DNA of 64,000 nucleotides from Deltaproteobacteria bacterium (lineage in GTDB: Bacteria; Myxococcota; SpSt-1050; JACRCP01). Positions 7,140 through 50,414 of the stretch are shown here, in pieces. Position numbers and translations under genes: made by a program. Position 1 is the stretch's first letter; each line of letters begins with the position of its first letter. Where the stretch lies: contig JACRCP010000248.1 of NCBI GenBank assembly GCA_016218965.1, positions 10,517 to 74,516 of the forward strand. The letters are read 5' to 3'. The notes below the pieces were generated by a model that was given only the letters and a program-made list of their open reading frames with translations, was not told where the DNA came from and did not search any database.

Positions 7140-7249
7140 GGGGCCTCCAAAAAAGAGTCGGGACCAGGAAATACAAGCCCCGTGCCACCCCGGTCGCCAA
7201 TGAAATCAAGTACTTGCCGGCGACCCCGGCCGGTTTCCGCCCGCGACCG

Positions 7250-7279: not shown

Positions 7280-7351
7280 GGTGCGGGTTCCCGAAAGTGA
7301 TACACTGCGCGAGCTCGCGATTGAGGGCGGGGAAAATCGGGCGGCGGACCC

Positions 7352-8047: not shown

Positions 8048-8049
8048 CT

Positions 8050-17700: not shown

Positions 17701-19163
17701 ACAACGACACCGCCGAGGCGTCGGGAAGAACGCCGATTGCATGGTCCAAGGTCGGCGGGCCTGCCGAGTTTTCCATTGACGCAACTTCGGGGCGTGTCAC
17801 GTGGACGCCGGTCGCTTTCGGACCGGCCGAGATTTCGATCAAAGCGGAGAATGCGTGGGGGAGCGACGTGCAGACGTTCACTGCCGACGTCACGAAAGGC
17901 GCGACCCCAGAGCCGCCCTCGGCCGTGCTGGCGGCGGATCCGGACCGCGGCGATGCGCCGCTTGACGTTTCTTTTTACGCGTCCGGGAGCACGGCCGGCG
18001 CGGGCGCCACCATTGTGCAGTATCGATGGGATTTCGGCGACGCGACCGGGGCTTCAGGCCAGGGCAAGACCGCCTCGCACACCTATCCCAGACCGGGTGT
18101 GTATCGGGCTGGCCTCACCGTCGTGGACGATTGGGGGCAATCCGGAAGCGCGTCGGCCGAGATCACGGTAATGGCGAAGGGCTTGCAGCCGCCGACGGTG
18201 AAGATTGTGGCCGACAAGACTGAGGGCGAGGCGCCGCTGCAGGTCTCCTTCTCGGCCGAGTGCACGGATGACGGCCGGATCGTGGACTATTTGTGGGATT
18301 TCGGCGACGGCTCGGCGGGGACGGTCGAGAAACCGGCGCACGTGTTCCAGTCGGGCGGGAGTTGGCCCGTGACTTTGCTCGTGCGGGACGACGACGGGCT
18401 GTCGGGATCGGACAAGAAGATCATCACCGTGACGGCAGGCGGGCTTAGGCCGCCCGCGGTAAAGATCAGCGCCTCGACTTCCAGCGGCGAGGCGCCTCTG
18501 GATGTCGAATTCACGGCGGTCGTGACCGAAGGTGACGGCGAGGTCACCTCCCGCCGCTGGACCGTCGACCGCGTGGATGCGGGGTCGGGCGAAACCCTTT
18601 CGCGCACGTTCGACCAACCGGGGCGGTACCTTGTTGCGCTCACCGTCTATGACTCGAACGAGCTCTCGGGGTCCGACGTGGTGACCACGAACGTCCTGAA
18701 AAACGGTCTCGTCCCGCCCGAGATAGTATCGAGCCCGGATCTCACGGCGCGGGCAGGGATCGAGTACCGGTACGCGGCGAGGGCCGTCGGCGACCCGCCC
18801 ATCGAGTGGTCGCTCGTCAAAGGGCCGGCGGAGATGGGCGTTGACAGTGCAACGGGCGAGATCACATGGACGCCGCCCGCGAACTCGCCGCCAAACGCGG
18901 ACGTGACCATCTCCGCGTCCAATGCTGCGGGCGAGGACAAGCAGGGCTGGACCATCATAGTAGGCGGCGCCGTCGGCGCCGCCGGCGCCGACGGCGGAAC
19001 GACGCCCGACGCCCCCGGGCTTGGCGACGAATCCGCCGGCGGGTGCAGTTGCGCGACGGCATCGGCTTCACCGGCCGACCTTGCGGCCATCGTTCTGTCC
19101 CTGGCTCTGATGATCGGCGTAGCGTTGCTGGCGCCGCGCGTGGGACGGGGCAGGAGAGCGTAG
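11757..19163 (+). CDS. Giant cell-surface lipoprotein adhesin (~2470 aa) with Big/invasin-type Ig, PKD and cadherin-like repeats and a MYXO-CTERM-like C-terminal sorting tail
   Basis: Lipobox (LLAAC). Many Big_1-like repeats (ADG..TSTI.VTA.D..G....G..V). Five PKD-like modules (DFGDG...H.Y...G.Y...L.V.D). C-terminus 'GCSCATASAS...IVLSLALMIGVALLA-PRVGRGRRA' (Gly-Cys, TM helix, Arg cluster). Confidence 0.85.
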   Translation: MSRSFLAFGAAVVLLAACQTGDQDKAEVPPASDGAFELHHTDEIPALRTGTSWTRALPDGKRLAHISTAPIHYTDETGTLRKIDVNIVPVARRDLPNAAFGVEKNLFKTYFPARAGEGVTVELPGGHRIEMWRETAVAALDDAYAPLHALVPEASLGEPREHAVSYRGSFRNIDERFTAGPVLLKHDVEIKSRDALPSVHRLAYLAFSEDVVLSHGLRLSCDGQVIAEPTVCQGGLEVMDASGGFIAGFRAPWYRDAASAAPLGPAGAAGRAAYLVSPGNGVFRLSVVVPFGWLNDEARVFPVVIDPTVSPEANADTWIFSSCPDTNGSPYQAMYAGRDGGDLFVDCSPASNLRALVKADLSSVPIGATVDAATFNAYLADSWYDGTTTSYTVSRLTGAWSEAVTWNTQPGIDSPEATVGIPWSYDIWISWSIPVMAQYWASNPTGSHGLAIRHWNEGSQTSMRQFWTREYSGGHPYFSVTYTPDSTAPAFQSTTVTGARYQNGNDYWVRGGEQVKIAVRHFDNQSGLKIQQVDLYNGSCNSWIDHYWDSHSNIVSYVPGGCSHVTFPAPTAEEIENAGGYTTTRFTAQFTGGDYDYPVQGRAWDYATNDSNLANDGKYVKTDDTDPSISNLSPSGGFVSGVVTVSADVTDARSGLKSVVFSIGDAACSGGWTDLGAPSQAGNTFSSSWDTSGRPEGTYCIRAVGTDNADRTATATTTVSVDRTAPSITSRQLDKAQVIPNGSEQLTVTIAAQDSSNPVWWIKGRINFDGSADLAACQNNPPDPPCRGSFVWSPDQSYLVASGYVSITSCSGGGYGALIDAWGGSTYLTLASCTGGVAGNAATAAWTISLTPAFGEHTGNWISADAADISNNVGSWGPTAPAAPMFDTLAPTPTTPQFSPVPPAFTKGTSINLQWTASSEPVYGIKEYEAARTNTPAEAQSCGASPPAGYTSSGAVGGTNHIFSGLVDGQKYCHWVRAKSNADKYSAWSNPASSTQDNTNPTCALDGVTGTAGIVYFNTTIKRVYYNNSTSGGNIDVLASGADAASGIVSINFPTIGGFSGSGNDTTAPYRSSDVSAYSFTPASTFTGSGFAICTDGVNNQTPASYSIERDILAPEGGLISYPNGTSGAAAVTVQWDDGSDSGSGLGSVQLRRAEAAYSGGSCGSFGPFADVGNQTVGGLSWIDTGIQVNKCYKYEALVADNVGNAVTYDNTNVFVRIPGAPADPAKSTISAAPQTLPADGAATSTILVTAIDTNSQNMGAGQAVAIAIEAGTGTLLGTVEDKGNGTYTQLLQAGTKPGSATLSATINGVLLNGRATVTYVVGPVDKDKTEIIAVPASIVADGSSTSTIVVTPKDAGGNLIGKGQTVTVTLASGTGTLSGAVADKQDGTYEQTVTSPTAAGSGEFEAEVNSVKITSRAAVTYTAGGAAKLAFVVQPPAAVQAGAVMAPFSVAVADANGNVVTGDNATQITLSLDAGTGTPQGTLLRAVSAGVASFDDVSHRTAETIRFRARSAPPHAEATSSDVVVSAGPADHVVATALAGSVLIGTQAAVEIAVKDRFENTAAGAREVTVTVDRAAQIAATTLAGASGIGTAAVTGTTAADGTAQVSVTDATPEVVTVAPDGAGLPEQSQNVAATVQFVRETPDHIVLSIPAGEVRAGVSRVITAKVRDKNDQDLSAQVIVTIRAEKGAQFTATTLAASSGIGTAVLSGTIPASGAAEATITDTVAETVNVVPEAQLAQTMPHTGVTVTFVPNVPAGTVTLLPNPAKIRADGVSVSTVTSGEIKDQYGNVERDGTLITVASSKGNINASDASAANAGIQVATLGGVVTFDVRADATPGVADVTVASVEGSAAGAATLEFAANGAPTADAGADVEAVGGDAVTLDGSASSDPEGDALTFVWTQTAGEPVALSDATAEKPGFDAPDVSDMQELEFALVVNDGLGASAPDTVKVTVTPGAGAAPKITSTPALKATTGEPYHYDDNDTAEASGRTPIAWSKVGGPAEFSIDATSGRVTWTPVAFGPAEISIKAENAWGSDVQTFTADVTKGATPEPPSAVLAADPDRGDAPLDVSFYASGSTAGAGATIVQYRWDFGDATGASGQGKTASHTYPRPGVYRAGLTVVDDWGQSGSASAEITVMAKGLQPPTVKIVADKTEGEAPLQVSFSAECTDDGRIVDYLWDFGDGSAGTVEKPAHVFQSGGSWPVTLLVRDDDGLSGSDKKIITVTAGGLRPPAVKISASTSSGEAPLDVEFTAVVTEGDGEVTSRRWTVDRVDAGSGETLSRTFDQPGRYLVALTVYDSNELSGSDVVTTNVLKNGLVPPEIVSSPDLTARAGIEYRYAARAVGDPPIEWSLVKGPAEMGVDSATGEITWTPPANSPPNADVTISASNAAGEDKQGWTIIVGGAVGAAGADGGTTPDAPGLGDESAGGCSCATASASPADLAAIVLSLALMIGVALLAPRVGRGRRA

Positions 19164-20255: not shown

Positions 20256-20306
20256 AACAGGATTTGGGATTTAGAAATTAGAAATTTGGATTTGGAATTT
20301 TAGGAT
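20254..20306. repeat. AT-rich 'AAAACAGG-ATTTGGGATTTAG-AAATTAGAAATTTGGATTTGGAATTTTAGGAT' element between mreB and mreC (copy 1 of 2; see 60581-60625)
   Basis: Stands out in a ~68% GC background. A 13-mer ATTTGGGATTTAG and the flanking AAAACAG are shared with the inverted copy at 60581-60625. Confidence 0.6.
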
Positions 20307-20337
20307 CTGGGACATGCGAAACTGACGGCGGGCTTTC

Positions 20338-24985: not shown

Positions 24986-27900
24986 TCAATATTGTCCCGT
25001 GAGCCGCACGAAGAACCCCGAGGCGTCGTGGTTGAGGCTCTCGTAGAGGTTGTCCGAGAAGCTCGAGAAGTTGTAGCCCACTCCAAAACGGATGTTCTTG
25101 GCGGGGATGATCGCAACCTCGGCAAGATACCCGTCCTTCTTTTCGAGATCGAGAAGGACGAGCACGCGGTACTCGGCGCCGAGGTCGATTCTCTCCTTCC
25201 AGAGGTGGAAGTTGAGCCGGTTGATCCAAAGGACCATGTTCACTGCCGTCCACGGCTGGGCGTACGACTGCGAAACGGCGTGCTTGAGCGCGAGCTTTTC
25301 GACGATCTGGAGCCTGAATGGCGTTTCGACGATCGGGATGAGCGAAAAGATGTCCGAGTAGATCTCCTGGGCGGCATCATCAGCCGTGACGTCGAAGTTC
25401 CGGAACTCGTACAGGCGCGAGTACTTGAAGATGAGGTTTATCCAGTCGAAGTTCACGGGCCTAAGCGCAAACCCGAAGCTCGCCTCCATGAAAGCGGCCT
25501 CGCGGCGTTCGTAGCGCTGGTTCTGCGTGTCCGAAACGGAAAGCTTTGCCAAAAACGACAGATCGCGCGTGAACCGCCACGTCGATCCCAGGGTCGCGAG
25601 GTACTGGAACCGGTCCTGGCCGTTCCAATGCTCGTCGGCGTTGTCGAACCGGAGCTCGAGCCTGGTGCCGATCTTGAAGAACTCGTAGCGCAAAAACTCG
25701 AGCCCCACCGCAAAGACATCGCGGGCCGCGTCGCCTTCCATCATCCCCAGTGGGTAGTTCAGGCCGTAGTACGGGACCAGGGCGCCCGCCGAAAGCGCCG
25801 ACTCGTCGCTCTTGAGACCCGCCTGCCGGCCCTGAAGCGGCGACCTCGAATCGCCGGCAAACGCCGCCTGGTTTGGCCGCCCGTATGCCGTGTACGGCGA
25901 CGAGCTCAAGGGAATCGCCCCAAGCGCCGTGTCGGTGCTCGAGATGTACGCCGCGCCGCCCAGCACCTGCGTGTGCTCGAAGTCGAGGTTGAAATACGTC
26001 CCCTTGGCGATGGGCCAGCGGTTGTTTAGGCCGAATACCGACCGGTTCATGGCGTTGCTCGAGACCGAATCGACCTGGTACTCACCGTAGGTTCTCGTCC
26101 CCGGGATGCCCTGGTCCTCGGCGCCCAGCACGCTCGACGTGACGAACTGCCCGTTCCACGACCCCAGTTTCTCGTTGACGTATGCGCTTCCCGTCCCCGA
26201 ATCCGAGAGCGGGACCTTGAGGCCAAGCTGTGTCGCGTTGTCACCGGACCAACGGGCCGTCTCGGACGCCCCCACGACCAGCCCTTCGCGAATCGTGTAC
26301 CTCGCGCCGACCGTCGAGAACATCCTGTCTGCAAACGAATCGTAGAGCTTCGGGTCGCCGCCCATCACGCCCTGCTGCGCGCCGAAAAGCTCCCACCGGC
26401 GGCTGAGCGCATAAGACAGCCCCGCCCCCGCGATGTCGGTGTGGACCTCCTCGGGGGCGACTATGTTGTCCCGGAAATAGATGTAGTTGTCCTCGGCGAG
26501 GACCTTCCACGGTCCCAACTTCTTCTGCCACGACCCGTAGGCCGAGTACTTGTCAAAACTCATCTCGCGCGCGCCGGCGGATTCCGTGAGCGGTTGGGGC
26601 GGGATGCTAACGCTTAAGGCATCGCCCTTGAAACGCAGCTCCATGTCGCCCGGGAGCGTCTTTGACGAGTCGAAACCGTATTTGAGCATCCCCTGTTGAA
26701 GGACGCTCGTCCCCGCCGAGAATCCCGGGTCCATGTCCTGGGCGTACGCCTTGAGCGCGAGCCGCCGCCCGTCCTTCCCGAGGGCCTCGCCCACGTCGCC
26801 CTGCGCCTCGAACATCCAGGCGCTTCCGCCGATCCCGTTCTGCGGGAGGATCCCCCCGCCCGAGGAGATGAAACTCAATCCCCCGTCGTCCGAAAAATAC
26901 ACCGTCGAATCGAAGGACCTCGACTGCGCAAACTCGGCCTTTAGGGCGGCGGTCTTCCCCACGCTCAAGACGGCGTCGGCGCCCCAGATGGAGTACGCCT
27001 CGCGTCCCTTGGCCTCTTCTTTCACATACCCTCCGCCCAGCCGTAGCATCTTGAAGACCGTTTCTTCGACGCGGGCGCCGTACGCCCTGTTGCCCCCGGC
27101 GAGGATCGCGCTGTAGTCGTAGTCGACCTCGAGAAAGACCGGGTGTCCCGCAAGCTGCCGCCCGGGACCCAGAAGCGGCGAGAACGAGTCGGCCGTGGCG
27201 GAGACAGGCTGTTTGAGGATGATCCGGCCCTCGCCGTAGCCCATCGAATAGTCGATGTCGCGGGCAAGCGTCCGGCGGAGGACATCGAGCCCCGAGTCCT
27301 TGTCGCGGACAACGAGGTCCACGCGGTCGCTCCCCTCGATGACGGCGCCGTTTCGCAGATACAGCACCGACCCGCCGGTGGGCCGAAGCACCAGGCGGTC
27401 GTGCGCTATCTCGTCGTAGTCCTGCGACACGAACCCCTTGACGCGGTTTCCCAGGTTCCCGTCGAACGCGGCCCGGTTGAGATCCGCGTCCACGCCGTAG
27501 AACGCGCGGTTGTACCTCAGGAGCTCGACGCCCCGAAGGTCCGAGACGAAGTTGCCGACCAGAAGCCTTGAGTCGTCCGCCTTGACGAGAAGATACAGTT
27601 TGTCTCTGGCGTTGACGTCCTGCACCTCCGACGCGGAGTCGCCGTAGACGGGGTAGTAGCGCTCGGGGTTGTACGCCTCCTTGAAGTACTCGTGCGCGAG
27701 CTCGCGTTGCTTGGCCGTGTCGAAATGGAGCGTGTATTCGATGTTCTCGAACGTCGCCCGCCTGTGCGCCATCCCCTTCACGTAGAGGACGCCTCGACCA
27801 TGAAAGAGCATCCCCGGCCAGTTCACGCCGTTCCAAACCCGAAGTGACGAGGCGGTCGAGACTCCGTCGAGGTCAAGCCCTCCCATACCGGCGATCCCCT

Positions 27901-30900
27901 CGCCGAGCGCCAGCACAAAGACACGCTCCGGGTCGTACTCGATGGTGTACGAGACGCGGCTCCGGTGTCCCGCCGGGTCCTCGGCGGTGACCTCCACGAG
28001 GTTTTTGCCGGGGGCAAGTTTGACGGTCGCGTAAAATGAGCCGTCCTCGCGCACCGGGACTGCCTGGGAGCCCACGATCACCGTGTTCCCGGGCGTCGTG
28101 CCGCCGCGGAAGGTCAAAAACTCATGGCGCGCGACGTAACCGGGCGGCGGGAGTTCGACCCACGTGGCAAGCGAGCGGTCCTCGGAAGGCTGCGGGCTGT
28201 AGGCTGGAGGCTGGAGTCCGGCATCAGGAGTGGGGAGTCCGGCATTGAAGGATGAATCGGGCAACGCGCCGCCGTCGCGAGTCGTGAGTCGTTGGTCGTG
28301 AGTCGGCGTGCCGGCGTCGTCGGTCGTGAGTCGAGAGCCGTACTCCGCCCAGTCGGTCTCGTGCGGCGCGGCGCCCGCGTCGGGGCCGGGTTCCGTCCGG
28401 CCGGGCACCTTTTCGGACGTCCGGTCAACGCGCGCCGCGGCGAACTTTTTCAGCCGGCAGTCGACGCCGAAATTGACCTTGGCCGGGAGTCCCGGCGTGA
28501 AGTTCAGACCCTTGACCACTTCGCCGGTCGGAAGCGACCCGGGCGGCAGCGTGGCCACGTCCAGCTTGACCAGATGATAGCCGGCCGGGATTCCCTTGAA
28601 GTGGTACTTGCCGGTTTCGTCCACGTCCGAGTACCAGCCCGTGTCCATGAACACGCGCGCCCCGCCCAGACCGTCTTCGCCGGGGTCCTGCGCGCCGTTT
28701 CCGTTGGAGTCGCAGAAGACCTTCCCGATGAGCAGCCCCTGGTCGAATATCGGGTCCTCGACCACTCGGACGGGCGCCGAGGCGTCAACGTCCACCGCGC
28801 GCCCTTCGATGTAGAGCCGCGCCCGGTTGTTGAGCACCCCGGTTTTCGCCTCGAGCCCGACCACGGCCTCGTAGCGCAGGCGGACGGTCTCGGAAGCGCC
28901 AATGGAAATCGCACCGAAAGAGATCTCGGCCGCCCCCGCCGCATCGACCGTCGTATCGGCCTTCTCTTTCCCGTTCACGGCGCGGTAGAGCCTGGCGCTG
29001 TTCTGGATGAATCTTAGGCCCGAAGGAAGGTAGTCGTGGATGCTCACTCCGCCCGTTCGGGCCGCGCCGCTTGGCCTGAAGGCCTTTGACGACAGGTTCT
29101 GCACTGTCACGGTGTACGTGAGGATGTCGCCCCGCGCGGCCTCCGGCTTGCTCACGTTTTTCTCAATCCTGAAGGCGCTCTCCGCCCGGTCGAGCGGGAT
29201 CCGGTTGTTTTTCAGCACAAACTCGTCCTTCCCCGAATCGACCCGCAGGTAGTACGGTGCGCCGCGGGAGCGCTCGGAGAAGTCGGTGCTGACGTAGCCG
29301 TCGGCCGCCGCCTTGGCGTAGCCTGCGATGGGAGGGTACGTGCCGGATGGGAATATCATCGACGGCGACGGCCCGGACACCTCGATCCGGTAGGCGCCCC
29401 CCGCCGGGAGCTCCGCCGCGTACATTCCGGTCCAGTCGGTCTTCTGCACGCGGAGTTCCTTGGGGACCTTCTGCGACGGAAGTGAGAGCCCCGATGCCCC
29501 GTCGGGGTAGTACACGACGGTGGCGTTCTCAATGGGCTCGCCGCTCCGGGCGTCATAGATGACGCCGGCGGGAACGATCGCCATGTCCGAGCGGTGGACG
29601 TCGCCCTCCTTGAGATCAATCCCTGCAATCCCGGCGAACGGGACGCCGTTTTGCGAATACACCGTGAGGCGGTAACGCCCGGGGGCGAGGTTGGCGACTT
29701 CGAACGACCCGGCGGCGTCGACGAGCACGCGCGCCGTACGTTTGCCGGGCGACGCGGGACCCGCGGGCCTGGGCGCGGCGCTGCGGCTTGACCCGGTTTC
29801 CTGGTCGACCGCCACCGTGTAACCCCGAAGCGGAATGTCTTTTCCCTCGCTGAATTGCGTCTCTTTCGTGTCGCGTTTTTGGAACACGCGGCCCTTGACC
29901 ATCGCGGTCCCCTCGGTCCCGCCGACGATGAGCGAGACCGTGTTGGTCGTCTGTTTGAACTTGGGCGAGTAGACCACGGCGGCGTTTTTGACCTGGTCGC
30001 CCCGGACTGCGTCCTTGTCCGCCGTGACGAGGAAACTCAGTTTGACGGCATCGGCGGGCGACGCCGCCCGGGGGATCGTGAGTTTCGTGACGACCAGCTT
30101 CCCGCGCGTGTACCGGCCCGACGGCGCGGGCAGGAAACTCAACACTGCGTCCTGTGGAACGGTGTAGTTCTTGGGGTCGTTTTTAAACGTCGTGTGGGCA
30201 GGGATGTCGTCTTCGAGGGTGACCGCCTCGAGGTCGCCCGACCCCTGGTTCAAGAGCGTCAGCGTGTAGAGGACCTGGTCGCCCGGCATCAGGCTCCCGC
30301 CGTTCAGATCGGCTGCGTCCTTGGCGGCGCTCAAGAATATCTGTTCTCCGCCGCAGGTGGGGACCACCGTTTCCTGCGCGCCGTTTCCTGCGTCGCCGTC
30401 CGCGTCGCTCAATACCGACACCCCGCCCCCGTATGTCAGCGTTGCCTGGTTTGCAAACCCGCCGCATTCCCCGACTGTGACGTCGAACGCGAAGCGGACC
30501 CTGCCGCCCGGCCCAAGGTCCGAAAGCAACAGCCGGACGCTTCCGCGCACGCCGTCCGCGGCGTCAAACCGGCCCTGGTCGCCGTCCGCCGCATCGGTGA
30601 GCGCGACCATCGCGCCGCCGTCGCGCTGGACCATCATGGACCCCGGCACGTACGAAACCCTGTCGGACAACGGGTCGCGGAGCGCGACGTCGCCGGCGGC
30701 GGCGGCGCCCGCGTTCTCGAACGAGAGGACGAACTCGACCACGTCGCCCTTGTCGGCGACACCGTTGGCGTTGGCGTCGGTTTTCAAAAACCACGTCTTG
30801 GCGAGCGCGGGAATGAACGGCACGTCCCCGACCGGCACGACGGTTTCGTTGGTCCAGACCGGCTGGCCCCCGTCCCGGTCGATCCGCGCCTTGTTCTTGA

Positions 30901-33900
30901 CGACCTGTGCGCCGGGGAGGACCGTGACCTCGAACGTCACCACGGCAAGCTCGTCGTCCGACCCCCTGCCGTCCCACGGCACTATCCTGCCCTCGTCGGC
31001 CCCGGGCATTGCGCCAAAAGACGCCGACGTCACCTTGAGGCCGGCCTCCAGAGGGAACTTCCCGCCCCGCGAATCGGCGATTGGTCTCCCGTTGAGCGTC
31101 GTCGATCCCGCCACGTACCGGGAGGTCTGCGGGTCGATCAGATCGGTCAGAGTCGTCCCGGTGGCATCCGTCCTTCCGACGTTTTTGACCGTGATCGAAT
31201 ACCGTATCCTGTCGCCGGACCTAAGCGGGCTCCTCGACGGCGCTGCGGCCTTGGCGGATGCCGACAGGTCCGGCGACGCGGCCGATCGGACGACGAGCGT
31301 TGTCGCGTCGGACTTGGCCGGCGTCCGCGGGTCGTCCGTCACGTCCTTCACGCCTTCCGACGACTCGACGGCTGCCTGGTTCGAGATCTTCGTCCCCGGG
31401 GCCGCGGAGGCCGCGACCGAACAGGCAAACGACAATGCCGTCTTCCCGCCCGAAGGGATGAGCTTGAGCGCCGGTGTCTGCGCCGGCCCCCAGGAAATCC
31501 TGGCGCCGTCGAACGCCCCGCCGCTTGCCGGGATGACCCCGGCAAGGTTCGTCGAATCGACGAGGTCCGTCACGGTGACGTCGTGCGCATCGATCGTCCC
31601 GGTGTTTTTCACCTCGATCTTGAATACGATCTGGTCGCCCGGCGATACCTCCTGGTCCGCGGGGATTGCGGCGCCGGTCGCGGTGTACGGCAGTTTGGTG
31701 CTCGACGAAAACACGGGCTTGTTGAGCACCGTGACGACCGTCGGCTGGTAGCCGTTCTTTGGGTCGCCGTCGGCATCCGAGTAGGCATCGACGAAGTTCG
31801 ACCCTTTTGCGACGGCCTGGTTCGCAATCTCGGTCCCGTCCGGTATTCCCGTCTTGAGCCGTGCATTGAACCTGTACGTGTACGTATTCGGAGGGGAAAG
31901 TCCGAGGGGCGGCAATGTCCACGAAAGGACGTGCCCCGCCGGGTCGTAGGTCCCTCCGTCAAGGGGCGTTGCCGCGTCGAGGAACCCCGCAATCGACGAG
32001 ATGTCATCGCGCAGCGTCCCGCCCTCGGCAATCGCGTCGCCGATGTTGGTGAGCGTGATTGTGTAGGATACCGTGCCGCCCGGCGGCGCCTGGGGGCGGT
32101 CGGCCTGTTTCGTCGCGTAGACAAAGGCGGTCGAGGCCACCTTGAACACCGTCGGGTCCGCAGCGGCCGGCGTCGCGGGGTCGTCGCTTGAAAACGGTGC
32201 GCCAAGGTTCGAGGCGGAGAGCACCGCCTGGTTAGAGACAACCGTCCCGTCCTTCAGGGGTTTTTTGACCTTTGCGCCAAACGTGTACGCGAACGCCCCC
32301 ACGCCGCCGTCGGCGCCCGCCGCAGGCAGGAAGCTCACCGTCCGCGTGGCAGGGTCGTAGGTCCCCGCCGAGACCTGCACGTCCTCGAGGTTCGAATCGA
32401 CCACGTCGGAGAGCTTCGCGCCGCAGAGCTTGACCTGGTCCTTTGGCGTGAACGCGACGGAGTATTCGACCCTGTCGCCGGGCCGGACCGGCGTCAACGC
32501 AAAAGACGCCCGTTTTTCAAAAGTGCCCCCCGCGCCCGCGCCGGAAACCGGCAGGACGATTTTCGGCGTGTTGAAGCCGTTCGGAACCTCCGCGGCCGAG
32601 ATGTGCGCCAGGTTCTCGACCTGGCCCGAGACGCACTGCCTCACAAGCGCCGCAAACGAGACCTTGGCCGCGTTCTGCGCGCCGACGCCGAGCGACGGGA
32701 TGGAGTAGCGCACCTTTTTGCCGTCGAACGTCCCGCCCGGGTATGTTTGGACCGTCAGCCTCGATGTGTCCACCGTGTCCTCGATGACCACCCCGGTCGC
32801 CTCGGCGTTGCCCGTGTTGACCGCCGTGATCTCGAATGTGACCGTATCGCCGGGTTTGAGCGACGCCGCGGGGGACCCTCCGACCGATGCGGTCTTCCTG
32901 CTCAGGATGAAATCCGGCGCCGACTCGACGGTCACTATCGTCGGGTCGGCCGGCGTAACGGTGTCGGGGTCGTCTGAGTTGGCGGGGTACTGGTTCTCGG
33001 CGCAGACGATGGACGCCTGGTTGCGAATCGTCGTGCCGTTCTTGATGGGCGTCCTGACGTCGGCCTCGAAACTCACGGTCCAAAACGCGCCAATCCCAAT
33101 CGACGGCACGGTCCACGTGATGACGCCGCCGGCGATCTGCCCCCCGTCCCGGACCGTGATGTTGACGAGGTTCTGCGTGTCCACGGCGTCGGTTATCGTG
33201 ACGTTTGTCGCCGCCACCGTCCCCGTGTTGGTGGCGGTCACCAGCCAGATCACCTTCGACCCGGCCTGGAACTTGTGCGTCCTGTTCGCAAACGACCCGT
33301 CCGGCGTGGCCACCTTGGTCGAGGCCGTGAACCCCGGCTGCTCTACTACCGCGAGGCGCACGGTGTTCGTCTTGAGGCTCGCCCCCCCGCCCGTGACGGT
33401 CGCGAAGTTCTCTACGAAAGACCCCGGTCTTGTCGGCGGCAGGACGCGGGCCGTGAACGTGAGGGCCACGGACCGCCCGAAATCCAGGCGCGGGACCGTC
33501 CAGTTGACGGCCCGGGTGATCGTATTGTAGGTCCCGGCCTGAACTGAAACGTCCGAGAGGCCGCGGTCCACGGTGTCGACGACCAGGAGGTCGTTTAGCC
33601 CGCCGGGGCTGGCGTTCACGACGGTCACCGTGAACGTGAGCAGATCGCCCGCCTTGACCACGCCGCCGGTGTCGCCCTGGACCGCCTTGGCGCTCCCGGA
33701 GAAATCGTAGGGGAACGTGACCGCAAGCGTGACCGGGTCGTCGGCCGCCGAAGTGGCCGGGTCGTCCGTCGGCACGCCCGTTATGACCTCTTTGGAATAG
33801 ACGAACGCCTGGTTGAAGATCTTCAGGCCGGAGTCAAGCGGCGTCTTTGCCCGCGCGGTAAACGCGACGGCCTTTTGCGCGGCCGGCGCCATGTCACCCA

Positions 33901-36427
33901 GGTTCCAGCGGATCGTCCGACCGGCCCTGTCGAACGTCCCGCCGTCTTCGGGAACCACGTTTTCGAACCTGGAGTCGACCTGGTCGAGCACGTACGCCGC
34001 CTCGGCCACCCTGTTGCCGGAATTGGCGACCGTCACGACGAATCGAACCGCCTCTCCCGGGGCGATGGTCCTGCGCCGGTCGTCCGCGCCGAAGATGGCG
34101 GCCTTTTTTGATGTCGAGAAATCGGGCGCGACGGTCACGAACAGTTCGGCGCTCACGGTCTTGGATACCGAGCTGTCGGCGGGTGTGGTTATCACCGCTG
34201 TGTTCTTGATTTCGGTAGTGCCGGAGGGGAGTTGATTGACGATTCTCACCCTGTACTTGATCTCGGCGACCGCCCCGTGGCCGGCCAGGTCGAAGCCGTC
34301 GACAGTGAGCACGCCGCTCGTGAAATCCCATCGCGCACCCGGGGGGAGCGGACCGACGTCGAAGGTGTACTCGACGTACGGCGAAAAACGGTCGGTGACG
34401 ACGACGGGGACCGTGCGGTTTCCGGTGTTTCTTAGCGTGATGGAGTACTCGAGCGTGTCCCCGGGCGCGGGCGGGTTTGACGTCTTGTCGACAACCGCCT
34501 TGCTCGATGCCGAGAAATCCGGGGCGTATGTGAGCGTCACGACGGTCGGGTCAGCGCCCCCGGGCTTCGCGGGGTCGTCGGTGAGCATAGGCGACGCGAG
34601 CGCGGGGCCGGTGAGTGTCCCCTGGTTGCTCACCTGATAGCCGTGGATTTGCGTCCTCGAGCGCCACTGGTCGGCCGTGTCGATCTTGACGAGGAAGGTG
34701 AACGTCACGCTGAAGCGTTTCGGGACCGATATCCCCTCGATTGACACCTTGGATGCCGTGGACCGATCGGTCGAGCCGCCGGGCGGGTTGACCTTTGTGA
34801 CGGTGGTGTGCGCGGGCGCGTTGTCTTCGAATTTGAGCTCGTTGACGTCGTAGTCCGACTCGTTCTTCAGCGTGATCTCGTACTGGAGCGTGTCGCCCGG
34901 CTCGACAAAACCGCCGTTTAAGTCGGCGACCGTCTTCGTGATTGATTTTACCTCCGGGGCGCGGACGGTGGTCTTGACGGTATTGGTGTTGACCGGCTGG
35001 GTTTCATCCGACGAGATCCGGGCGCCGTTGGTGATCTCGGTGCCGCTTCGCCTGCCGGTCTTGATTCGGACCTGGAACTTGACCTTTTTTGCCGCCGTCC
35101 CGACCGCCAGATCGCCGATGTTGAGCCCCGACCCCACCGAGAGCGGGCACTGCCCTCCCCTTCCGTCGGCGGCCGGCACGTCGTCTACCGTCGTGCTCCC
35201 CGGGATGTAGTCGGTCCCGGCCGGGATGGTGTCGAAGACCTTCACGTTGTGGGCCAGAAGCGACCCCTCGTTCTTGACCCAGATCGTGTACGTGAGCGTC
35301 TCGCCGCCCCCGGCCACGACCTTGTCCACGTCCTTGACCGTCCCCGACCCGTGAAAGTCCGGGGCGTAGGTGTCGAGTGCGAGGACCATGTAACCAAGGA
35401 ATATGCTTTCGCCGCCCCCGGTGAGTGACAGCGGATCGCCGACATTGCCGTCACCGGAGCCGACTTGAATCGACGCGTTCGTCTGGCCGGACTGAAGGAT
35501 GTTCAACCCGCCGACTCCGACATTGAACGTGTCGATGTCCACTCCGACGCCGTCCACGGATTCGCCCTCGATCGTGCTGTTGAAAACGTTGTTCGGAGGA
35601 TTGGCGGTGTCGGTGAGTTTCACGCTGTTCAACGAGAGGAAATCATTGCACGTCTCGCAGTAGAGGGGATGATCTTTCGGAAGCTGTTTCTGGAAAGGTT
35701 CGCCCAACTGATCGTCCCCTTCGAGCCCGAAATACGCAAACTCCGCATAGGCGGGGTTTCCGACTGTGAATCCTCCTATGCTCATTGGCGACGAGATGCC
35801 GGTGCGGTCGTCTTCGTCCACGTGATAGAACCCGTCGTAGATCACAACGTCGCGGTACTTCCTCTGGCTCTCCGCACTCCAGACAACGACGAGCGACCAC
35901 CCGGCGTAACGGGCCTGGCACCAGACGTCCGTGTCGCACGAGGCCGAGATCCTCGCGTCAACGTTTCCCACCGTGTACAGACCCGACAACGTGGGAAGCC
36001 CCGTCAGCAGGTCAGTGACGCGTTTCCTGCAGTAGAAGAAGGAGCCTTTGTCCCCGGTGTCGACTTGGTAGCAGGTGTCCGCGACCAACGAGGCGTGTGT
36101 AGGCGAATTCGGCGGTGTGAAGTCGGCGGTCGGGCTCGAGTAGATGTTTTTCGACCCGGACCAGAACAGCCAGGCCTCAACGAGTTTGCCGTCGGCCGGG
36201 ATCGAGGTTATCGGGGCCGTTTTTTCCGGAAGCAGGACGCAGTTGAAACGCCCGGATTCGATCGGGCACCACTGGGTGAGAGTCGCCCCGGTCTTGGCCA
36301 CCGAGCCGAGGAGCCGGTTGACGGTATAGAGTGGGGCCGGCGGGTAGCCGTCGACCGTCGCGCGCGCCTCGGGGGAGGCGGCCAGCGCCAAGAGGAGGAA
36401 CAGGCATGAAACGAGGCGTCTTTTCAC
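24986..36427 (-). CDS. Giant secreted protein (~3810 aa): N-terminal unique domain, ~20 DUF11/CARDB-like 'conserved repeat' modules, SdrD-B/CnaB-like and Big domains, and a C-terminal ~900-aa region with beta-barrel character
   Basis: Signal peptide (LLLALAASPEARA). Repeated '...PDFS.SK......G..L.Y.I...N.G...A..V...D.L' modules. 'FCDSNGNGAQDPGE' is SdrD-B-like. The C-terminus has alternating hydrophobic strands and ends '...GFFVRLTGQY' (terminal aromatic). Confidence 0.8.
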   Translation of the reverse strand: MKRRLVSCLFLLLALAASPEARATVDGYPPAPLYTVNRLLGSVAKTGATLTQWCPIESGRFNCVLLPEKTAPITSIPADGKLVEAWLFWSGSKNIYSSPTADFTPPNSPTHASLVADTCYQVDTGDKGSFFYCRKRVTDLLTGLPTLSGLYTVGNVDARISASCDTDVWCQARYAGWSLVVVWSAESQRKYRDVVIYDGFYHVDEDDRTGISSPMSIGGFTVGNPAYAEFAYFGLEGDDQLGEPFQKQLPKDHPLYCETCNDFLSLNSVKLTDTANPPNNVFNSTIEGESVDGVGVDIDTFNVGVGGLNILQSGQTNASIQVGSGDGNVGDPLSLTGGGESIFLGYMVLALDTYAPDFHGSGTVKDVDKVVAGGGETLTYTIWVKNEGSLLAHNVKVFDTIPAGTDYIPGSTTVDDVPAADGRGGQCPLSVGSGLNIGDLAVGTAAKKVKFQVRIKTGRRSGTEITNGARISSDETQPVNTNTVKTTVRAPEVKSITKTVADLNGGFVEPGDTLQYEITLKNESDYDVNELKFEDNAPAHTTVTKVNPPGGSTDRSTASKVSIEGISVPKRFSVTFTFLVKIDTADQWRSRTQIHGYQVSNQGTLTGPALASPMLTDDPAKPGGADPTVVTLTYAPDFSASSKAVVDKTSNPPAPGDTLEYSITLRNTGNRTVPVVVTDRFSPYVEYTFDVGPLPPGARWDFTSGVLTVDGFDLAGHGAVAEIKYRVRIVNQLPSGTTEIKNTAVITTPADSSVSKTVSAELFVTVAPDFSTSKKAAIFGADDRRRTIAPGEAVRFVVTVANSGNRVAEAAYVLDQVDSRFENVVPEDGGTFDRAGRTIRWNLGDMAPAAQKAVAFTARAKTPLDSGLKIFNQAFVYSKEVITGVPTDDPATSAADDPVTLAVTFPYDFSGSAKAVQGDTGGVVKAGDLLTFTVTVVNASPGGLNDLLVVDTVDRGLSDVSVQAGTYNTITRAVNWTVPRLDFGRSVALTFTARVLPPTRPGSFVENFATVTGGGASLKTNTVRLAVVEQPGFTASTKVATPDGSFANRTHKFQAGSKVIWLVTATNTGTVAATNVTITDAVDTQNLVNITVRDGGQIAGGVITWTVPSIGIGAFWTVSFEADVRTPIKNGTTIRNQASIVCAENQYPANSDDPDTVTPADPTIVTVESAPDFILSRKTASVGGSPAASLKPGDTVTFEITAVNTGNAEATGVVIEDTVDTSRLTVQTYPGGTFDGKKVRYSIPSLGVGAQNAAKVSFAALVRQCVSGQVENLAHISAAEVPNGFNTPKIVLPVSGAGAGGTFEKRASFALTPVRPGDRVEYSVAFTPKDQVKLCGAKLSDVVDSNLEDVQVSAGTYDPATRTVSFLPAAGADGGVGAFAYTFGAKVKKPLKDGTVVSNQAVLSASNLGAPFSSDDPATPAAADPTVFKVASTAFVYATKQADRPQAPPGGTVSYTITLTNIGDAIAEGGTLRDDISSIAGFLDAATPLDGGTYDPAGHVLSWTLPPLGLSPPNTYTYRFNARLKTGIPDGTEIANQAVAKGSNFVDAYSDADGDPKNGYQPTVVTVLNKPVFSSSTKLPYTATGAAIPADQEVSPGDQIVFKIEVKNTGTIDAHDVTVTDLVDSTNLAGVIPASGGAFDGARISWGPAQTPALKLIPSGGKTALSFACSVAASAAPGTKISNQAAVESSEGVKDVTDDPRTPAKSDATTLVVRSAASPDLSASAKAAAPSRSPLRSGDRIRYSITVKNVGRTDATGTTLTDLIDPQTSRYVAGSTTLNGRPIADSRGGKFPLEAGLKVTSASFGAMPGADEGRIVPWDGRGSDDELAVVTFEVTVLPGAQVVKNKARIDRDGGQPVWTNETVVPVGDVPFIPALAKTWFLKTDANANGVADKGDVVEFVLSFENAGAAAAGDVALRDPLSDRVSYVPGSMMVQRDGGAMVALTDAADGDQGRFDAADGVRGSVRLLLSDLGPGGRVRFAFDVTVGECGGFANQATLTYGGGVSVLSDADGDAGNGAQETVVPTCGGEQIFLSAAKDAADLNGGSLMPGDQVLYTLTLLNQGSGDLEAVTLEDDIPAHTTFKNDPKNYTVPQDAVLSFLPAPSGRYTRGKLVVTKLTIPRAASPADAVKLSFLVTADKDAVRGDQVKNAAVVYSPKFKQTTNTVSLIVGGTEGTAMVKGRVFQKRDTKETQFSEGKDIPLRGYTVAVDQETGSSRSAAPRPAGPASPGKRTARVLVDAAGSFEVANLAPGRYRLTVYSQNGVPFAGIAGIDLKEGDVHRSDMAIVPAGVIYDARSGEPIENATVVYYPDGASGLSLPSQKVPKELRVQKTDWTGMYAAELPAGGAYRIEVSGPSPSMIFPSGTYPPIAGYAKAAADGYVSTDFSERSRGAPYYLRVDSGKDEFVLKNNRIPLDRAESAFRIEKNVSKPEAARGDILTYTVTVQNLSSKAFRPSGAARTGGVSIHDYLPSGLRFIQNSARLYRAVNGKEKADTTVDAAGAAEISFGAISIGASETVRLRYEAVVGLEAKTGVLNNRARLYIEGRAVDVDASAPVRVVEDPIFDQGLLIGKVFCDSNGNGAQDPGEDGLGGARVFMDTGWYSDVDETGKYHFKGIPAGYHLVKLDVATLPPGSLPTGEVVKGLNFTPGLPAKVNFGVDCRLKKFAAARVDRTSEKVPGRTEPGPDAGAAPHETDWAEYGSRLTTDDAGTPTHDQRLTTRDGGALPDSSFNAGLPTPDAGLQPPAYSPQPSEDRSLATWVELPPPGYVARHEFLTFRGGTTPGNTVIVGSQAVPVREDGSFYATVKLAPGKNLVEVTAEDPAGHRSRVSYTIEYDPERVFVLALGEGIAGMGGLDLDGVSTASSLRVWNGVNWPGMLFHGRGVLYVKGMAHRRATFENIEYTLHFDTAKQRELAHEYFKEAYNPERYYPVYGDSASEVQDVNARDKLYLLVKADDSRLLVGNFVSDLRGVELLRYNRAFYGVDADLNRAAFDGNLGNRVKGFVSQDYDEIAHDRLVLRPTGGSVLYLRNGAVIEGSDRVDLVVRDKDSGLDVLRRTLARDIDYSMGYGEGRIILKQPVSATADSFSPLLGPGRQLAGHPVFLEVDYDYSAILAGGNRAYGARVEETVFKMLRLGGGYVKEEAKGREAYSIWGADAVLSVGKTAALKAEFAQSRSFDSTVYFSDDGGLSFISSGGGILPQNGIGGSAWMFEAQGDVGEALGKDGRRLALKAYAQDMDPGFSAGTSVLQQGMLKYGFDSSKTLPGDMELRFKGDALSVSIPPQPLTESAGAREMSFDKYSAYGSWQKKLGPWKVLAEDNYIYFRDNIVAPEEVHTDIAGAGLSYALSRRWELFGAQQGVMGGDPKLYDSFADRMFSTVGARYTIREGLVVGASETARWSGDNATQLGLKVPLSDSGTGSAYVNEKLGSWNGQFVTSSVLGAEDQGIPGTRTYGEYQVDSVSSNAMNRSVFGLNNRWPIAKGTYFNLDFEHTQVLGGAAYISSTDTALGAIPLSSSPYTAYGRPNQAAFAGDSRSPLQGRQAGLKSDESALSAGALVPYYGLNYPLGMMEGDAARDVFAVGLEFLRYEFFKIGTRLELRFDNADEHWNGQDRFQYLATLGSTWRFTRDLSFLAKLSVSDTQNQRYERREAAFMEASFGFALRPVNFDWINLIFKYSRLYEFRNFDVTADDAAQEIYSDIFSLIPIVETPFRLQIVEKLALKHAVSQSYAQPWTAVNMVLWINRLNFHLWKERIDLGAEYRVLVLLDLEKKDGYLAEVAIIPAKNIRFGVGYNFSSFSDNLYESLNHDASGFFVRLTGQY
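28186..28345. repeat. ~160 nt in 7-nt register inside the giant ORF: (GGCTNNA)x4, spacer, then (GAGTCGT)x7 (revcomp TCACGAC); copy 1 of a composite element also present at 52941-53012
   Basis: Read directly: 'ggctgta ggctgga ggctgga gtccggc atcagga ... gagtcgt gagtcgt tggtcgt gagtcgg ... cggtcgt gagtcga'. On the minus strand it encodes a low-complexity linker (..THDQRLTTRDGGALPDSSFNAGLPTPDAGLQPP..). Confidence 0.55.
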
Positions 36428-41405: not shown

Positions 41406-42341
41406 CATTCGTCCGTTCCCTCCTGCGTTCGCCGTACGCACTATATCATATGCCCGCGCAAAGGCCAATTTCAGACGGCACTGCGGCCCTTGTCTCTTTG
41501 ACCCCAACTTGGGGACGCATCGCGTACAATCCCGGAGAGCCGGGCAACGGCTGCACGCCGCCGAATCGACGATCAGGCGCGCGGCATTCGAAACCGGGCT
41601 TCGGTGGCAGGGGAGCACCGTCCCGTCGGGTTCGATGGTCATGGTATCCACGCCCGGATTGCAGGCCGCCGCCCTCCCCTCGCGCGCGCGTTCGAAATCG
41701 GACACGCGCGGGAGGACGCCGGTTTTTACCCCTCTTTCGTATTCCGCGGCCAATGCGCACAGCGAGCCGTCGAGGCGTTGAATCGGGCGGGGACCCCATC
41801 GGATGTTTGCCGCGGGGGCGATTCCCAGTTGCGTAACGCCGATCCCCGCGAGGTACAGCGCGTCGTCCCGGACGTGTCCCGCGGAGGCGGGCGTCACGGT
41901 CATCCGGACTGCCGTCGGCACGCCCGCCTTTGACAGCAACTCGAAGGCCCGAACGACCCTTGCATGCGTCGGAGACCCGCCGGCCGCCCTCCTGTGCCGG
42001 TCGTGCGTTTCGGTCTTGCCGTCGAGCGCAAGGGACACGGAGATGCCGTTTCGCGAAAGGAACCCGGCGGTCCCGGCATCGAGCAAGGTCCCGTTGGTGT
42101 TGAGCGTGAAAGCGCATTCCGGGTGCGCCAAAACCGCGGCGCGCAGCAGTTCGAAACGGAGCAGCGGCTCCCCGCCGAAGAAGACGACATCCCTCTTCCC
42201 GCGCGGGACGCGTTCGACAAGCGTGTCGAAAGAACGGATCATCGCCCGCCGGTCGGTTCTCCGCACGCGCCCGCCGCGGCCTGCGTAGCAATACCCGCAA
42301 CGGAGATTGCACGCGCCCGTGAGCTTGAGAACGATTCTCAT
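41223..42341 (-). CDS. Radical SAM/SPASM enzyme (rSAM #2) carrying an in-frame 61-aa C-terminal extension
   Basis: CxxxCxxC (CNLRCGYC) and a SPASM cluster (CSRCPALRDCTRC...C). The ATG overlaps the stop of the upstream GT2 gene (ATGA). The ORF reads through 'GGNGR' into the peptide-like tail with no stop. Confidence 0.75.
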   Translation of the reverse strand: MRIVLKLTGACNLRCGYCYAGRGGRVRRTDRRAMIRSFDTLVERVPRGKRDVVFFGGEPLLRFELLRAAVLAHPECAFTLNTNGTLLDAGTAGFLSRNGISVSLALDGKTETHDRHRRAAGGSPTHARVVRAFELLSKAGVPTAVRMTVTPASAGHVRDDALYLAGIGVTQLGIAPAANIRWGPRPIQRLDGSLCALAAEYERGVKTGVLPRVSDFERAREGRAAACNPGVDTMTIEPDGTVLPCHRSPVSNAARLIVDSAACSRCPALRDCTRCVPKLGSKRQGPQCRLKLAFARAYDIVRTANAGGNGRMEKYTVIEGKLYKIPPDVLKKYQLSEEDAHKAKAAGKAPKAPKAEPPLKGNWYELGESDCF

Positions 42342-43111
42342 CTCCCGCCACCGACCGCCCACCGCCCGCCGCCAAGCCGTGCGAGCCTGCCCGATCTCAC
42401 CCACTTCTCGAGAAACCGTTCCTTTCCCTTAATTCGTATCTCGAGGTCGTCGGGGCGGAGCCCAAAGCTCGCGGACTCCTCATGGATGAAGACGGCCGAG
42501 GGCTCGTACACGCTCGACCAACCGGCCTCGACGAAACGCAGGCCCATGTCGCAGTCATCGTACATTCCGAACCCGAAGCCCTCGTCAAGGCCCCCCAGTT
42601 CCCGAAAAGGCGCCGTCCGCAGAAGGATCGCCGCGTACGTGATCATGTCAAGCTCCCGGGGCTCCAGGACCTCCGGGGCGTGGCGGGTGAAGTATCGGTA
42701 CCTGTGGACGGGAATCCCTTCGCTCCCGATCTCGATCCCCGCGTGCGCCACCGTAATGCCGTCCGGAAACAGGAGCAGCGCGCCGACCGCTGCCGCCCGG
42801 GCGCGCTCGTCGAGCGCTCGGGACATAGCGGTGTCCCATCCGCCGAAGGGCACGACGTCGGAATTGAGAAGGAAGAAACGGTCAGATTGGACCAGCGACG
42901 CACCGCGGTTTGCCGCCGCGGGGAACCCGAGGTTTCGCTCGTGCACAACCGCGCGAACCCCATGCCTTCGTGAGCAGCCCCGGACAAGCTCGCGCGTCGC
43001 CGCATCCGGGGACGCATCGTCGACCAGGATCACATCGTGTCCGCGGAGATGCCCGAGCAGGCGTGCGAGGCCGGGGGCGTTGCCGTACACGGGGATGACT
43101 ACTTCAGCCAC
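42338..43111 (-). CDS. Family 2 glycosyltransferase
   Basis: GT-A fold motifs: VILVDDAS, DxD-like (NSDVV) and a C-terminal acceptor region. Overlaps both flanking rSAM genes. Confidence 0.85.
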   Translation of the reverse strand: MAEVVIPVYGNAPGLARLLGHLRGHDVILVDDASPDAATRELVRGCSRRHGVRAVVHERNLGFPAAANRGASLVQSDRFFLLNSDVVPFGGWDTAMSRALDERARAAAVGALLLFPDGITVAHAGIEIGSEGIPVHRYRYFTRHAPEVLEPRELDMITYAAILLRTAPFRELGGLDEGFGFGMYDDCDMGLRFVEAGWSSVYEPSAVFIHEESASFGLRPDDLEIRIKGKERFLEKWVRSGRLARLGGGRWAVGGGR

Positions 43112-47533: not shown

Positions 47534-47621
47534 GGTCCGCTGTTGGCGTGAGGTCCGCTTGCGCCCGGGGGCCGGGGCGTGTAGGCTGGCGCGGCCGTCG
47601 AGGGAGTCCTGGAGGGACCGA

Positions 47622-48620: not shown

Positions 48621-48623
48621 CAG

Positions 48624-48728
48624 GCATCCGCCTCCGCCATCCAACTTCGCCACGGTTTCGCCGAGCAAGAGGCTACGGCGGACGAGTGAGGCGCGAGGCA
48701 TGAGGCAGCAGGCGAAAGGCGGGAGGCG
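48624..48728. repeat. Copy B of the ~90-nt repeat, intergenic; its 3' heptamer tract (gaggcgc gaggcat gaggcag caggcga aaggcgg gaggcgg) provides the ATG and first codons of the downstream Omp85-like gene
   Basis: Direct comparison with copy A. The tandem 7-nt register is visible. Confidence 0.7.
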
Positions 48729-50319: not shown

Positions 50320-50414
50320 AGAAGGCAGGAGGCAGGAGGCGGAAGGTCGGGTGAATCGCGGGCCGATTGGTGGTATGATATCGGCCGTACCGGGACTCCT
50401 ACGGAGGGCGAGCC

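Follow-up and report, generated by a model that had tools for sequence, protein, structure and literature searches.

We analyzed a 64,000-nucleotide (nt) stretch of DNA from an uncultured Deltaproteobacteria bacterium (GTDB lineage Myxococcota; GenBank assembly GCA_016218965.1, contig JACRCP010000248.1, positions 10,517 to 74,516; hereafter the window) and found that it carries real arrays of degenerate 7-base tandem repeats, significant against chance, that lie mainly in the spacers between genes and are translated in two cases. These tracts are likely heptanucleotide long simple-sequence repeats that would have been born by slippage, have now decayed, are tolerated in spacers, and are occasionally co-opted as linkers. 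A preliminary description, made from the letters of this DNA alone, had named imperfect 7-nt arrays at gene boundaries as the main non-genic structure of the window. Our analysis agrees with this, and sequence reading, Tandem Repeats Finder (TRF), and a lag-7 scan found arrays as described at all four sites that had been flagged.

To locate the arrays, we slid a lag-match scan (threshold of at least 19 matches out of 28) along the 64-kb window. Lag 7 gave nine local regions, and lags 4, 5, 8, 10, 11, and 13 gave none. Order-3 Markov simulations predicted 0.23 lag-7 regions, with a maximum of 1, and the possibility that the period-7 signal is no stronger than base composition would produce, which the preliminary description had raised against itself, is thus not supported. 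The lag-7 autocorrelation over the whole window is ordinary (0.257), and the signal is therefore local rather than global. Independently, TRF reported period-7 and period-14 arrays at 28187-28216, 28274-28333, 48688-48729, 50323-50340, 52939-52977, and 52990-53019. A period of 14 or 21 nt often matches better than one of 7 nt (88% versus 81% at 52939-52977 and 94% versus 80% at 60585-60616), as is expected from block duplication. The Logan assembly of SRR12113407 is 100% identical to the window over 49153-53137, two tracts included, which argues against mis-assembly by a single assembler, with the proviso that the reads may be common to both assemblies.

The arrays belong to at least three unit families: AGGCNNN/GGAGGCN, ACGACNN, and AGGATTT/AAATCCY. 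The last of these is AT-rich and was missing from the preliminary description; it comprises the arrays at 20259-20307 and 60585-60616. All arrays are short and degenerate, with four to seven head-to-tail units each, and the longest perfect period-7 run per tract is 13-18 nt, or at most 2.6 units in any tract of the window. Five spacers hold six arrays that start 0-10 nt past a stop codon or sit in an element that does. The GC content of the source genome is 64%. The features are as follows, with the basis for each in brackets:

20259-20307, plus strand: (AGGATTT)n array of about seven degenerate units in the mreB-mreC spacer, 4 nt past the mreB stop (TRF, lag-7 scan)
24986-36427, minus strand: giant open reading frame (ORF) of 3813 amino acids (aa) with DUF11 and other immunoglobulin-like repeats, host of a composite of two arrays (profile matches, ORF reading)
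28186-28345, minus strand: whole composite, an in-frame low-complexity linker of about 53 aa, residues ~2694-2747 (translation, domain matches)
28186-28220, no strand assigned: (AGGCTGN)n array, four to five degenerate units on the plus strand (TRF, lag-7 scan, sequence)
28206-28245, no strand assigned: 21-nt (three-unit) duplication, GGAGTCCGGCATCAGGAGTGG-like, encoding NAGLPTP / DAGLQPP (TRF period 21, 84% matches)
28274-28339, no strand assigned: interrupted (GTCGTGA)n array, read on the plus strand (TRF, lag-7 scan, sequence)
47957-48040, plus strand: copy of an 84-nt element, in frame in a PIG-L-family ORF (47559-48620), with GGAGGC-type heptamers on its flanks (repeat search, alignment)
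48622-48731, plus strand: hairpin-forming intergenic element that holds the 48686 array as its 3' part (fold z-scores of -3.63 and -2.80)
48686-48729, plus strand: (GAGGCNN)6 array (TRF, lag-7 scan, profile match of the Omp85/POTRA gene)
50320-50345, plus strand: (AGGCAGG)3 array, 1 nt past the Omp85 stop codon at 50317-50319 (TRF, lag-7 scan, sequence)
52938-52979, plus strand: (CGACTSA)6 array, opening with the stop codon TGA of an 841-aa gene (TRF, lag-7 scan, register read from the sequence)
52990-53019, plus strand: (GCCTCNN)4 array; the minus strand reads (AGGCNNG)n (TRF, lag-7 scan)
60585-60616, plus strand: (AAATCCY)n array, reverse complement of the AGGATTT family, filling the 39-nt spacer between a short-chain dehydrogenase/reductase gene and the next ORF (TRF, lag-7 scan)
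42336-42378, minus strand: weak period-7 tract, GGCGGGN-like on the minus strand, encoding the Gly-rich C-terminus of ORF 42338-43111 (lag-7 scan); probably a coding coincidence, its family membership being doubtful

The composite inside the giant surface-protein ORF is translated throughout. The plus strand of its first array reads (AAGGCTG/GAGGCTG)n, and the coding (minus) strand, (CCAGCCT)n, encodes ...GLQPPAYSPQP...; the second array reads (TCACGAC)n on the coding strand and encodes ...RLTTDDAGTPTHDQRLTTRDGG.... The TGA-forming unit CGACTGA does not occur on the coding strand of this composite. The resulting linker sits between an SdrD_B-like domain (2569-2624) and a Glucodextran_B-like domain (2772-2831). 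It had been proposed that 28186-28345 falls into a 7-nt register over its whole length. We found the register at 28186-28220, at 28277-28304, and patchily at 28326-28339 (5-6 of 7), but not at 28242-28283 or 28305-28325 (2-3 of 7); the arrays are interrupted, and about half of the 160 nt shows no periodicity. Within the linker, the GC content at third codon positions (GC3) is 0.68, which is the 1st percentile of the giant ORF, and the difference between GC3 and GC2 is 0.06 compared to an ORF mean of 0.37 (0.3rd percentile), making this the lowest-ranked 159-nt window of the 11.4-kb gene. The lack of a codon-position GC signature points to an origin at the DNA level and argues against long-standing selection at the protein level. 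On each side of the linker, GC3 is ~0.82-0.88 in the same frame, and we therefore regard the giant ORF as one continuous gene. Specifically, we rejected a fusion of two genes through a missing stop, given the same-frame high GC3 on both sides, and saw no plausible start codon or signal peptide downstream of the linker. Our protein search for orthologues of the linker region gave one match with 13% query coverage, and no relative turned up when metagenomes were scanned with the C-terminal 1054 aa. We infer that the composite is DNA of the same kind as the spacer arrays, captured into the ORF and translated as a disordered interdomain linker. In annotation, the giant ORF should count as one gene and the tract as no switch.

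The second composite occupies the spacer between two convergent genes (52941-53025), in which each flanking gene has its own array after its stop. The (CGACTSA)6 array offers TGA in all three frames within 28 nt, and on the minus strand the (AGGCNNG)n array starts 7 nt past the stop of the convergent 715-aa gene (53026-55173). According to the preliminary description, the architecture is that of the giant ORF in reverse orientation. We found that the two composites have both families in common and agree in their order and orientation. Local alignment of the two gave a score of 38, whereas dinucleotide-shuffled sequences scored 20 +/- 3.4, with 35 as the highest of 300 values; the similarity is restricted to the low-complexity ACGAC part, and blastn-short found no match at E <= 0.01. 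Composite folds are near those of shuffled sequences (z = 0.23 and 0.76), with the exception of the minus strand of 52938-53028 (z = -2.26); the plus-strand RNA of this composite has no more structure than shuffles. No terminator-like site (a GC-rich hairpin followed by a T run) was found in 52938-53028 or at the other tracts, and we rejected the arrays as intrinsic terminators. A role as a Rho-loading site on the C-rich strand was likewise rejected, as the orientation is inconsistent among the tracts. With respect to the genes themselves, our metagenome scan found no orthologues of the convergent pair. A search with the 841-aa protein returned, at E <= 1e-100, only the identical protein HY897_15905 of the metagenome-assembled genome (MAG) and one 47% relative, which is encoded on a non-syntenic contig without heptamer tracts. 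Both convergent genes (50415-52940 and 53026-55173) have weak matches to the VolA/Pla-1 phospholipase model (TIGR03502, well below the cut-off), and from these shared matches they may be paralogous.

Upstream of this spacer, arrays lie at both ends of an Omp85/POTRA gene, and the heptamer runs previously noted at gene boundaries (48685-48728 and 50320-50350) indeed lie in its start region and directly after its stop, at 48686-48729 and 50320-50345. The 48686 array probably supplies the ribosome-binding site and the start codon (ATG 48700) and encodes MRQQAKGGRR, the charged N-terminus. We place the start here because the in-frame ATG is followed by the signal-peptide-like MRQQAKGGRRTVTTFIVAWCLAASVAGA. 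The ORF list sets the start at a far-upstream TTG (48355), and ATG 48700 inside the array is the likelier of the two. The suggestion that GGAGG-containing units mimic Shine-Dalgarno sequences therefore probably applies to the 48686 tract, but not to the 50320 tract, which lies 65-95 nt from the next start codon, or to the giant ORF, where the GGAGGC units are antisense.

In addition, the 48686 array is part of a long and imperfect hairpin (48622-48731), in which CCGCCUCCGCC near the 5' end pairs with GGCGGGAGGCGG near the 3' end. The first 84 nt of this element (48622-48705) form a dispersed direct repeat with 47957-48040 (85% identical), and both copies fold as imperfect hairpins. The 48622-48705 copy adjoins the stop of the PIG-L-family gene, and the other copy lies in frame within it. 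In an alignment of 11 PIG-L homologues, the window protein has an insertion of 22-28 aa at 47957-48040, which is absent in 10 out of 11 homologues and shorter in the closest one (P0124). This closest homologue (L131; ENA ERZ27247960) carries at 366-421, in its ORF and at the insertion site of the window, the array (GGAGACC)2-3(GGAGGTC)4, or (GGAGRYC)8, with four of its eight units being perfect GGAGGTC. An in-ORF array at the same site shows that GGAGG-type arrays occur and change length in the reading frames of this clade while the frame is kept. Beyond residue ~200, the L131 protein no longer aligns to the PIG-L family; the cause may be a frameshift or chimerism of the contig. A PDB sequence search with the PIG-L protein gave no matches.

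The AT-rich family occurs in both orientations relative to transcription (20259 and 60585). The 60585-60616 array runs into the ATG of the next ORF, which has no Shine-Dalgarno sequence, and its RNA is predicted to be unstructured. For the other array, we compared the mreB-mreC spacer of the window to those of four other genomes (L122, L124, L125, and L126); the nearest named MreB sequences come from Myxococcota (81-83% identity) and Deltaproteobacteria MAGs, in line with the Myxococcota affiliation assumed in the preliminary description. L122 is syntenic with the window, with 98% aa identity in MreB and 82-90% identity at the DNA level. Its mreB-mreC spacer of 340 nt otherwise differs from that of the window, and it has only TTTGGGATTTGAGAA where the window has about seven AGGATTT units. 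Relatives with 90-96% MreB identity have mreB-mreC spacers of 25-34 nt without repeats. The array is thus absent or reduced in the relatives, which indicates that it is young and lineage-specific. Together with the PIG-L array (compared to L131), this spacer demonstrates turnover of both length and sequence between related genomes. Outside the spacer, L122 carries four extra genes at 7055-9828, one of them for a PhdYeFM-type antitoxin; they separate mreB from a 2455-aa repeat-protein gene, at a place that in the window is a spacer of 58 nt. An array with an 8-nt period, (AGGTCTAC)n, lies at 8897-8961 of L122. In the Terriglobia MAG SRVP_17 (L007, 3875-4036), the mreB-mreC spacer contains an inverted pair: (GTCGYYG)4 follows closely on the mreB stop, and (ACGACYA)5 closely precedes the start of mreC. 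We considered positional conservation of the array across phyla and set it aside, as the shared position is probably a coincidence (chance roughly 0.1-0.2, a rough estimate). A plant-type telomere repeat was also rejected for AAATCCC, which is no circular permutation of TTTAGGG.

To see how widely such arrays occur, we scanned a genome collection for ACGACNNACGACNNACGACNNACGAC, that is, (ACGACNN)3ACGAC with 20 fixed bases, and obtained at least 120 matches where ~1 is expected by chance. The matches listed, to which the following results refer, come from more than 10 phyla (Acidobacteriota, Chloroflexota, Gemmatimonadota, Verrucomicrobiota, Armatimonadota, Cyanobacteria, Bacteroidota, Omnitrophota, Patescibacteria, Actinomycetota, and Proteobacteria), and include MAGs of Thermoanaerobaculia and Chthonomonadaceae and one Woesearchaeote. 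The 838 kb of DNA at these loci hold 333 lag-7 tracts, compared to 7-11 at lags 4, 5, 10, 11, and 13, and 42 at lag 8. Among these tracts are 198 further arrays with many other units, often as adjacent composites or inverted pairs. About 73% of the tracts lie outside called genes, which cover 69% of the DNA (by a rough GC3-based gene call). Arrays occupy eight convergent spacers and one divergent spacer; between co-directional genes, the sense strand reads ACGAC in 15 cases and GTCGT (ACGAC antisense) in seven, a difference that is not significant. An ACGAC array followed by a GCCT array, as in the window, was found at none of the 120 loci, and there are no GCCT/AGGC arrays within 150 nt. At two loci of the Thermoanaerobaculia MAG DASXRT01 (L011, 7437-7521, and L074, 945-1022), a GGGGGC...GCCCCC hairpin stands between inverted heptamer arrays, which gives very long stems of 7-nt units; the architecture recurs in this one genome. 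In a low-GC (0.40) genome with many other heptamer arrays (L121, 7379-7471), about 12 units form a telomere-like (TTAGGGA/TTAGGGG)n array.

Other repeats of the window have a different period. Two 9-nt-period arrays (TTCTCTGTG / CTCTCTGTG) lie at 4280-4349, apparently in the spacer between ORFs that end near 4190 and start near 4327. Near the 3' end of a 2480-aa ORF, the 9-nt repeat (CGGCGCCGA)n at 18965-18996 forms a 29-nt near-perfect palindrome. An Rfam scan of the window gave only a tRNA (644-717) at or above the gathering score.

We propose that short arrays would arise and lengthen where they stand, through slipped-strand mispairing or unequal exchange that adds 7, 14, or 21 nt at a time, in a lineage that appears prone to a 7-nt step size. 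Because a 7-nt step destroys reading frames, arrays would survive mainly in spacers, on the stop-codon side and away from promoters and ribosome-binding sites. Point mutation would then degrade them, and the arrays of the window, all decayed, would now be poor substrates for slippage. Their effects would be incidental: longer spacers, extra stops in all frames after a gene, and RNA that lacks structure or, where an inverted array is there to pair with, folds into a hairpin; one array would also provide a ribosome-binding site together with the opening codons of a signal peptide. Occasionally, arrays would be captured in ORFs as a linker or loop. The giant-gene composite consists of two adjacent arrays plus a 21-nt duplication, whose net length keeps the frame and whose coding strand is free of stop-forming units, giving a disordered linker.

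Several observations weigh against this account. A 12.7-kb stretch of the closest relative contains no lag-7 tracts, and the idea of a lineage prone to heptamers thus rests on a small sample. The two composites share their order and orientation beyond what independent births would lead one to expect. Mismatches among the units are uneven: in the window, 70% fall on the two most variable positions compared to 59% expected (p = 0.006), and at other loci 65% compared to 62%. This hints at conserved 4-5-nt cores (AGGC and ACGAC) and hence at some constraint, or else at the copying of units that had already mutated. Finally, slippage itself is deduced from the arrays, not observed, and the account leaves the preference for 7 nt without explanation.

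The uneven mismatches would also fit arrays that selection maintains as functional cis-elements, in which an oligomeric nucleic-acid-binding protein reads 4-5-nt cores at 7-nt spacing, either on RNA (in inter-cistron translation or mRNA stability) or on DNA. Mismatches gather at two or three positions of the unit and leave the cores AGGC and ACGAC. Arrays occur within operons (mreB-mreC) and directly before a start codon without a Shine-Dalgarno sequence (60615), the Terriglobia mreB-mreC spacer likewise has arrays, ACGAC-core arrays recur across phyla, and regulatory roles have been proposed for such repeats (PMC4679880; bioRxiv 10.1101/2022.06.06.494920). We nevertheless regard this as rather unlikely: a single 64-kb window holds several unrelated unit families, and other genomes hold dozens; one family stands in both orientations relative to transcription; the orthologous spacer of a relative with 82-90% DNA identity shows no conservation; the core test shows a small effect; translation includes one of the copies; and the mreB coincidence has a chance probability of ~0.1-0.2 by our rough estimate. 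A broader version, in which the arrays are a cross-phylum selected signal of core plus spacer (ACGAC, AGGC, or GGATT at 7-nt spacing), serving as landing pads for a single-strand-binding oligomer or arising from dedicated 7-nt-step synthesis, and in this lineage also serving proteins such as the giant adhesin-like one and the PIG-L enzyme as a source of new linkers and loops, seems unlikely to us. If it were true, the near-perfect in-ORF array of the PIG-L relative could still switch.

The likeness of the two composites raises the idea of a small mobile or duplicative element, similar to Rickettsia palindromic elements or miniature inverted-repeat transposable elements (MITEs), of which one copy was inserted in frame in the giant gene. 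Their two shared families, in one order and orientation, and an alignment score above the shuffle maximum would fit, and there is a parallel 4 kb upstream of the intergenic composite, where the 84-nt hairpin element has 85% identical copies in a spacer and in the PIG-L gene. However, the composite has two copies only, alike just in the low-complexity ACGAC part and without a blastn-short match, and it has neither terminal inverted repeats nor a significant fold; its ACGAC-then-GCCT arrangement was absent from all 120 ACGAC loci, and the growing heptamer array of L131 at the PIG-L site favors evolution in place. We therefore find an inserted element quite improbable. Far more remote is a contingency locus, as put forward in the preliminary description (which had itself flagged the imperfect units), in which gain or loss of 7-nt units switches the giant surface protein. 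The unit length is no multiple of three, so that unit number inside the gene would alter expression, and a related genome has four perfect GGAGGTC units in an ORF, such that arrays of this kind can exist in frame in this clade. However, the giant-gene arrays are interrupted, half of their 160 nt is aperiodic, and their longest perfect run is 16 nt (18 nt anywhere in the window), or at most 2.3 perfect units. This is too few for switching to be expected, known heptamer switches using long perfect arrays, and the tract is not a credible contingency locus. Equally far-fetched is the view that selection on the protein for a repetitive Pro/Thr/Asp-rich linker produced the giant-ORF periodicity as a side effect, with no relation to the arrays between genes. 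A disordered linker with the 7-aa repeat AGLPTPD / AGLQPPA is plausible as such, but nowhere else in the gene is the codon-position GC signature as weak, non-coding DNA has the same pair of unit families in that order, and peptide repeats are not expected to produce a 7-nt period.

Decayed simple-sequence repeats, the explanation we favor, have known counterparts. In many bacteria, no other long simple sequence repeats are as over-represented as heptamers, and favored polymerase slippage at a 7-nt unit has been proposed as the cause (Mrázek, Guo and Shah 2007 PNAS, as reported in PMC4679880 and PMC4692102). As far as these reports describe them, the repeats resemble those of the window in being tandem 7-nt units that are far commoner than other non-triplet periods, mostly intergenic, sporadic across lineages, and present as several families per genome. 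The window arrays themselves are tandem 7-nt repeats with a period-7-specific excess, a mainly intergenic location, several families, and turnover between relatives. They differ from the reported repeats in that the host is an uncultured Deltaproteobacteria/Myxococcota MAG, the arrays consist of four to seven degenerate units, and one composite is translated.

Tandem heptanucleotide repeats of cyanobacteria are called STRR. Such repeats are documented for Calothrix and Nostoc (cited in PMC4692102). Like the window, these genomes have several distinct heptamer families each, in spacers and inside operons, but their arrays are often longer and more perfect, with other units and in AT-rich genomes, unlike the 64% GC of the present genome. 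Arrays of GGGAATC in Xanthomonas and GGGGA(T/C)T in Nostoc show extensive variation from one close relative to another and may be arranged as inverted pairs (Rehm et al. 2015, PMC4692102). The AGGATTT/GGGATTT family (20259 and 60585) resembles this (GGGANTN)n type, and the arrays have in common position-specific conservation within the unit, some inverted pairs, and wide length variation between close relatives. The AGGC and ACGAC families, in contrast, are of another type, and the window has too few G3 runs for a G-quadruplex (at least four runs of at least three G): GGG occurs just twice at 20262-20275, and no G run in the GGAGGC units is longer than GG. TAACTGA direct repeats of marine Beggiatoaceae, Cyanobacteria, and Bacteroidetes lie beside start or stop codons, provide stops in three frames, have occasional copies in ORFs at protein peripheries, and precede genes without Shine-Dalgarno sequences (MacGregor 2015, PMC4679880). 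The window arrays likewise stand next to start and stop codons, give three-frame stops in one orientation, and have occasional in-ORF copies, and (ACGACTG)n shares the ACTGA core; unlike TAACTGA, which is one dominant unit, the window has several units, and its arrays hug stops without a start-upstream bias.

For the translated cases, NeuO of Escherichia coli K1 is a phase-variable counterpart (PMC13001214). Like NeuO, the giant gene has 7-nt units in a coding region and yields its protein only with frame-keeping unit numbers. The NeuO in-ORF heptanucleotide switch uses many identical copies, compared to at most 2.3 perfect units here. Rickettsia palindromic elements and other small repeats are known as in-frame insertions in genes, and here too an intergenic-type repeat is translated as an extra loop or linker, with the 84-nt PIG-L element as a fitting case. 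Unlike those elements, neither candidate of the window belongs to a demonstrated multi-copy family: the composite has two copies and no palindromic fold, and the 84-nt element has two copies but does fold (z = -2.8 to -3.6); growth in place explains the data at least as well. In summary, many bacteria have been known since 2007 to carry an excess of 7-nt tandem repeats, which still lacks an explanation. To this picture, the window adds an uncultured Deltaproteobacteria/Myxococcota lineage as a host of heptamer arrays and evidence that arrays with the ACGACNN core turn up in MAGs from over 10 phyla, while its two translated cases, the linker of a 3813-aa surface protein and the PIG-L loop, show how non-triplet microsatellites become protein sequence.

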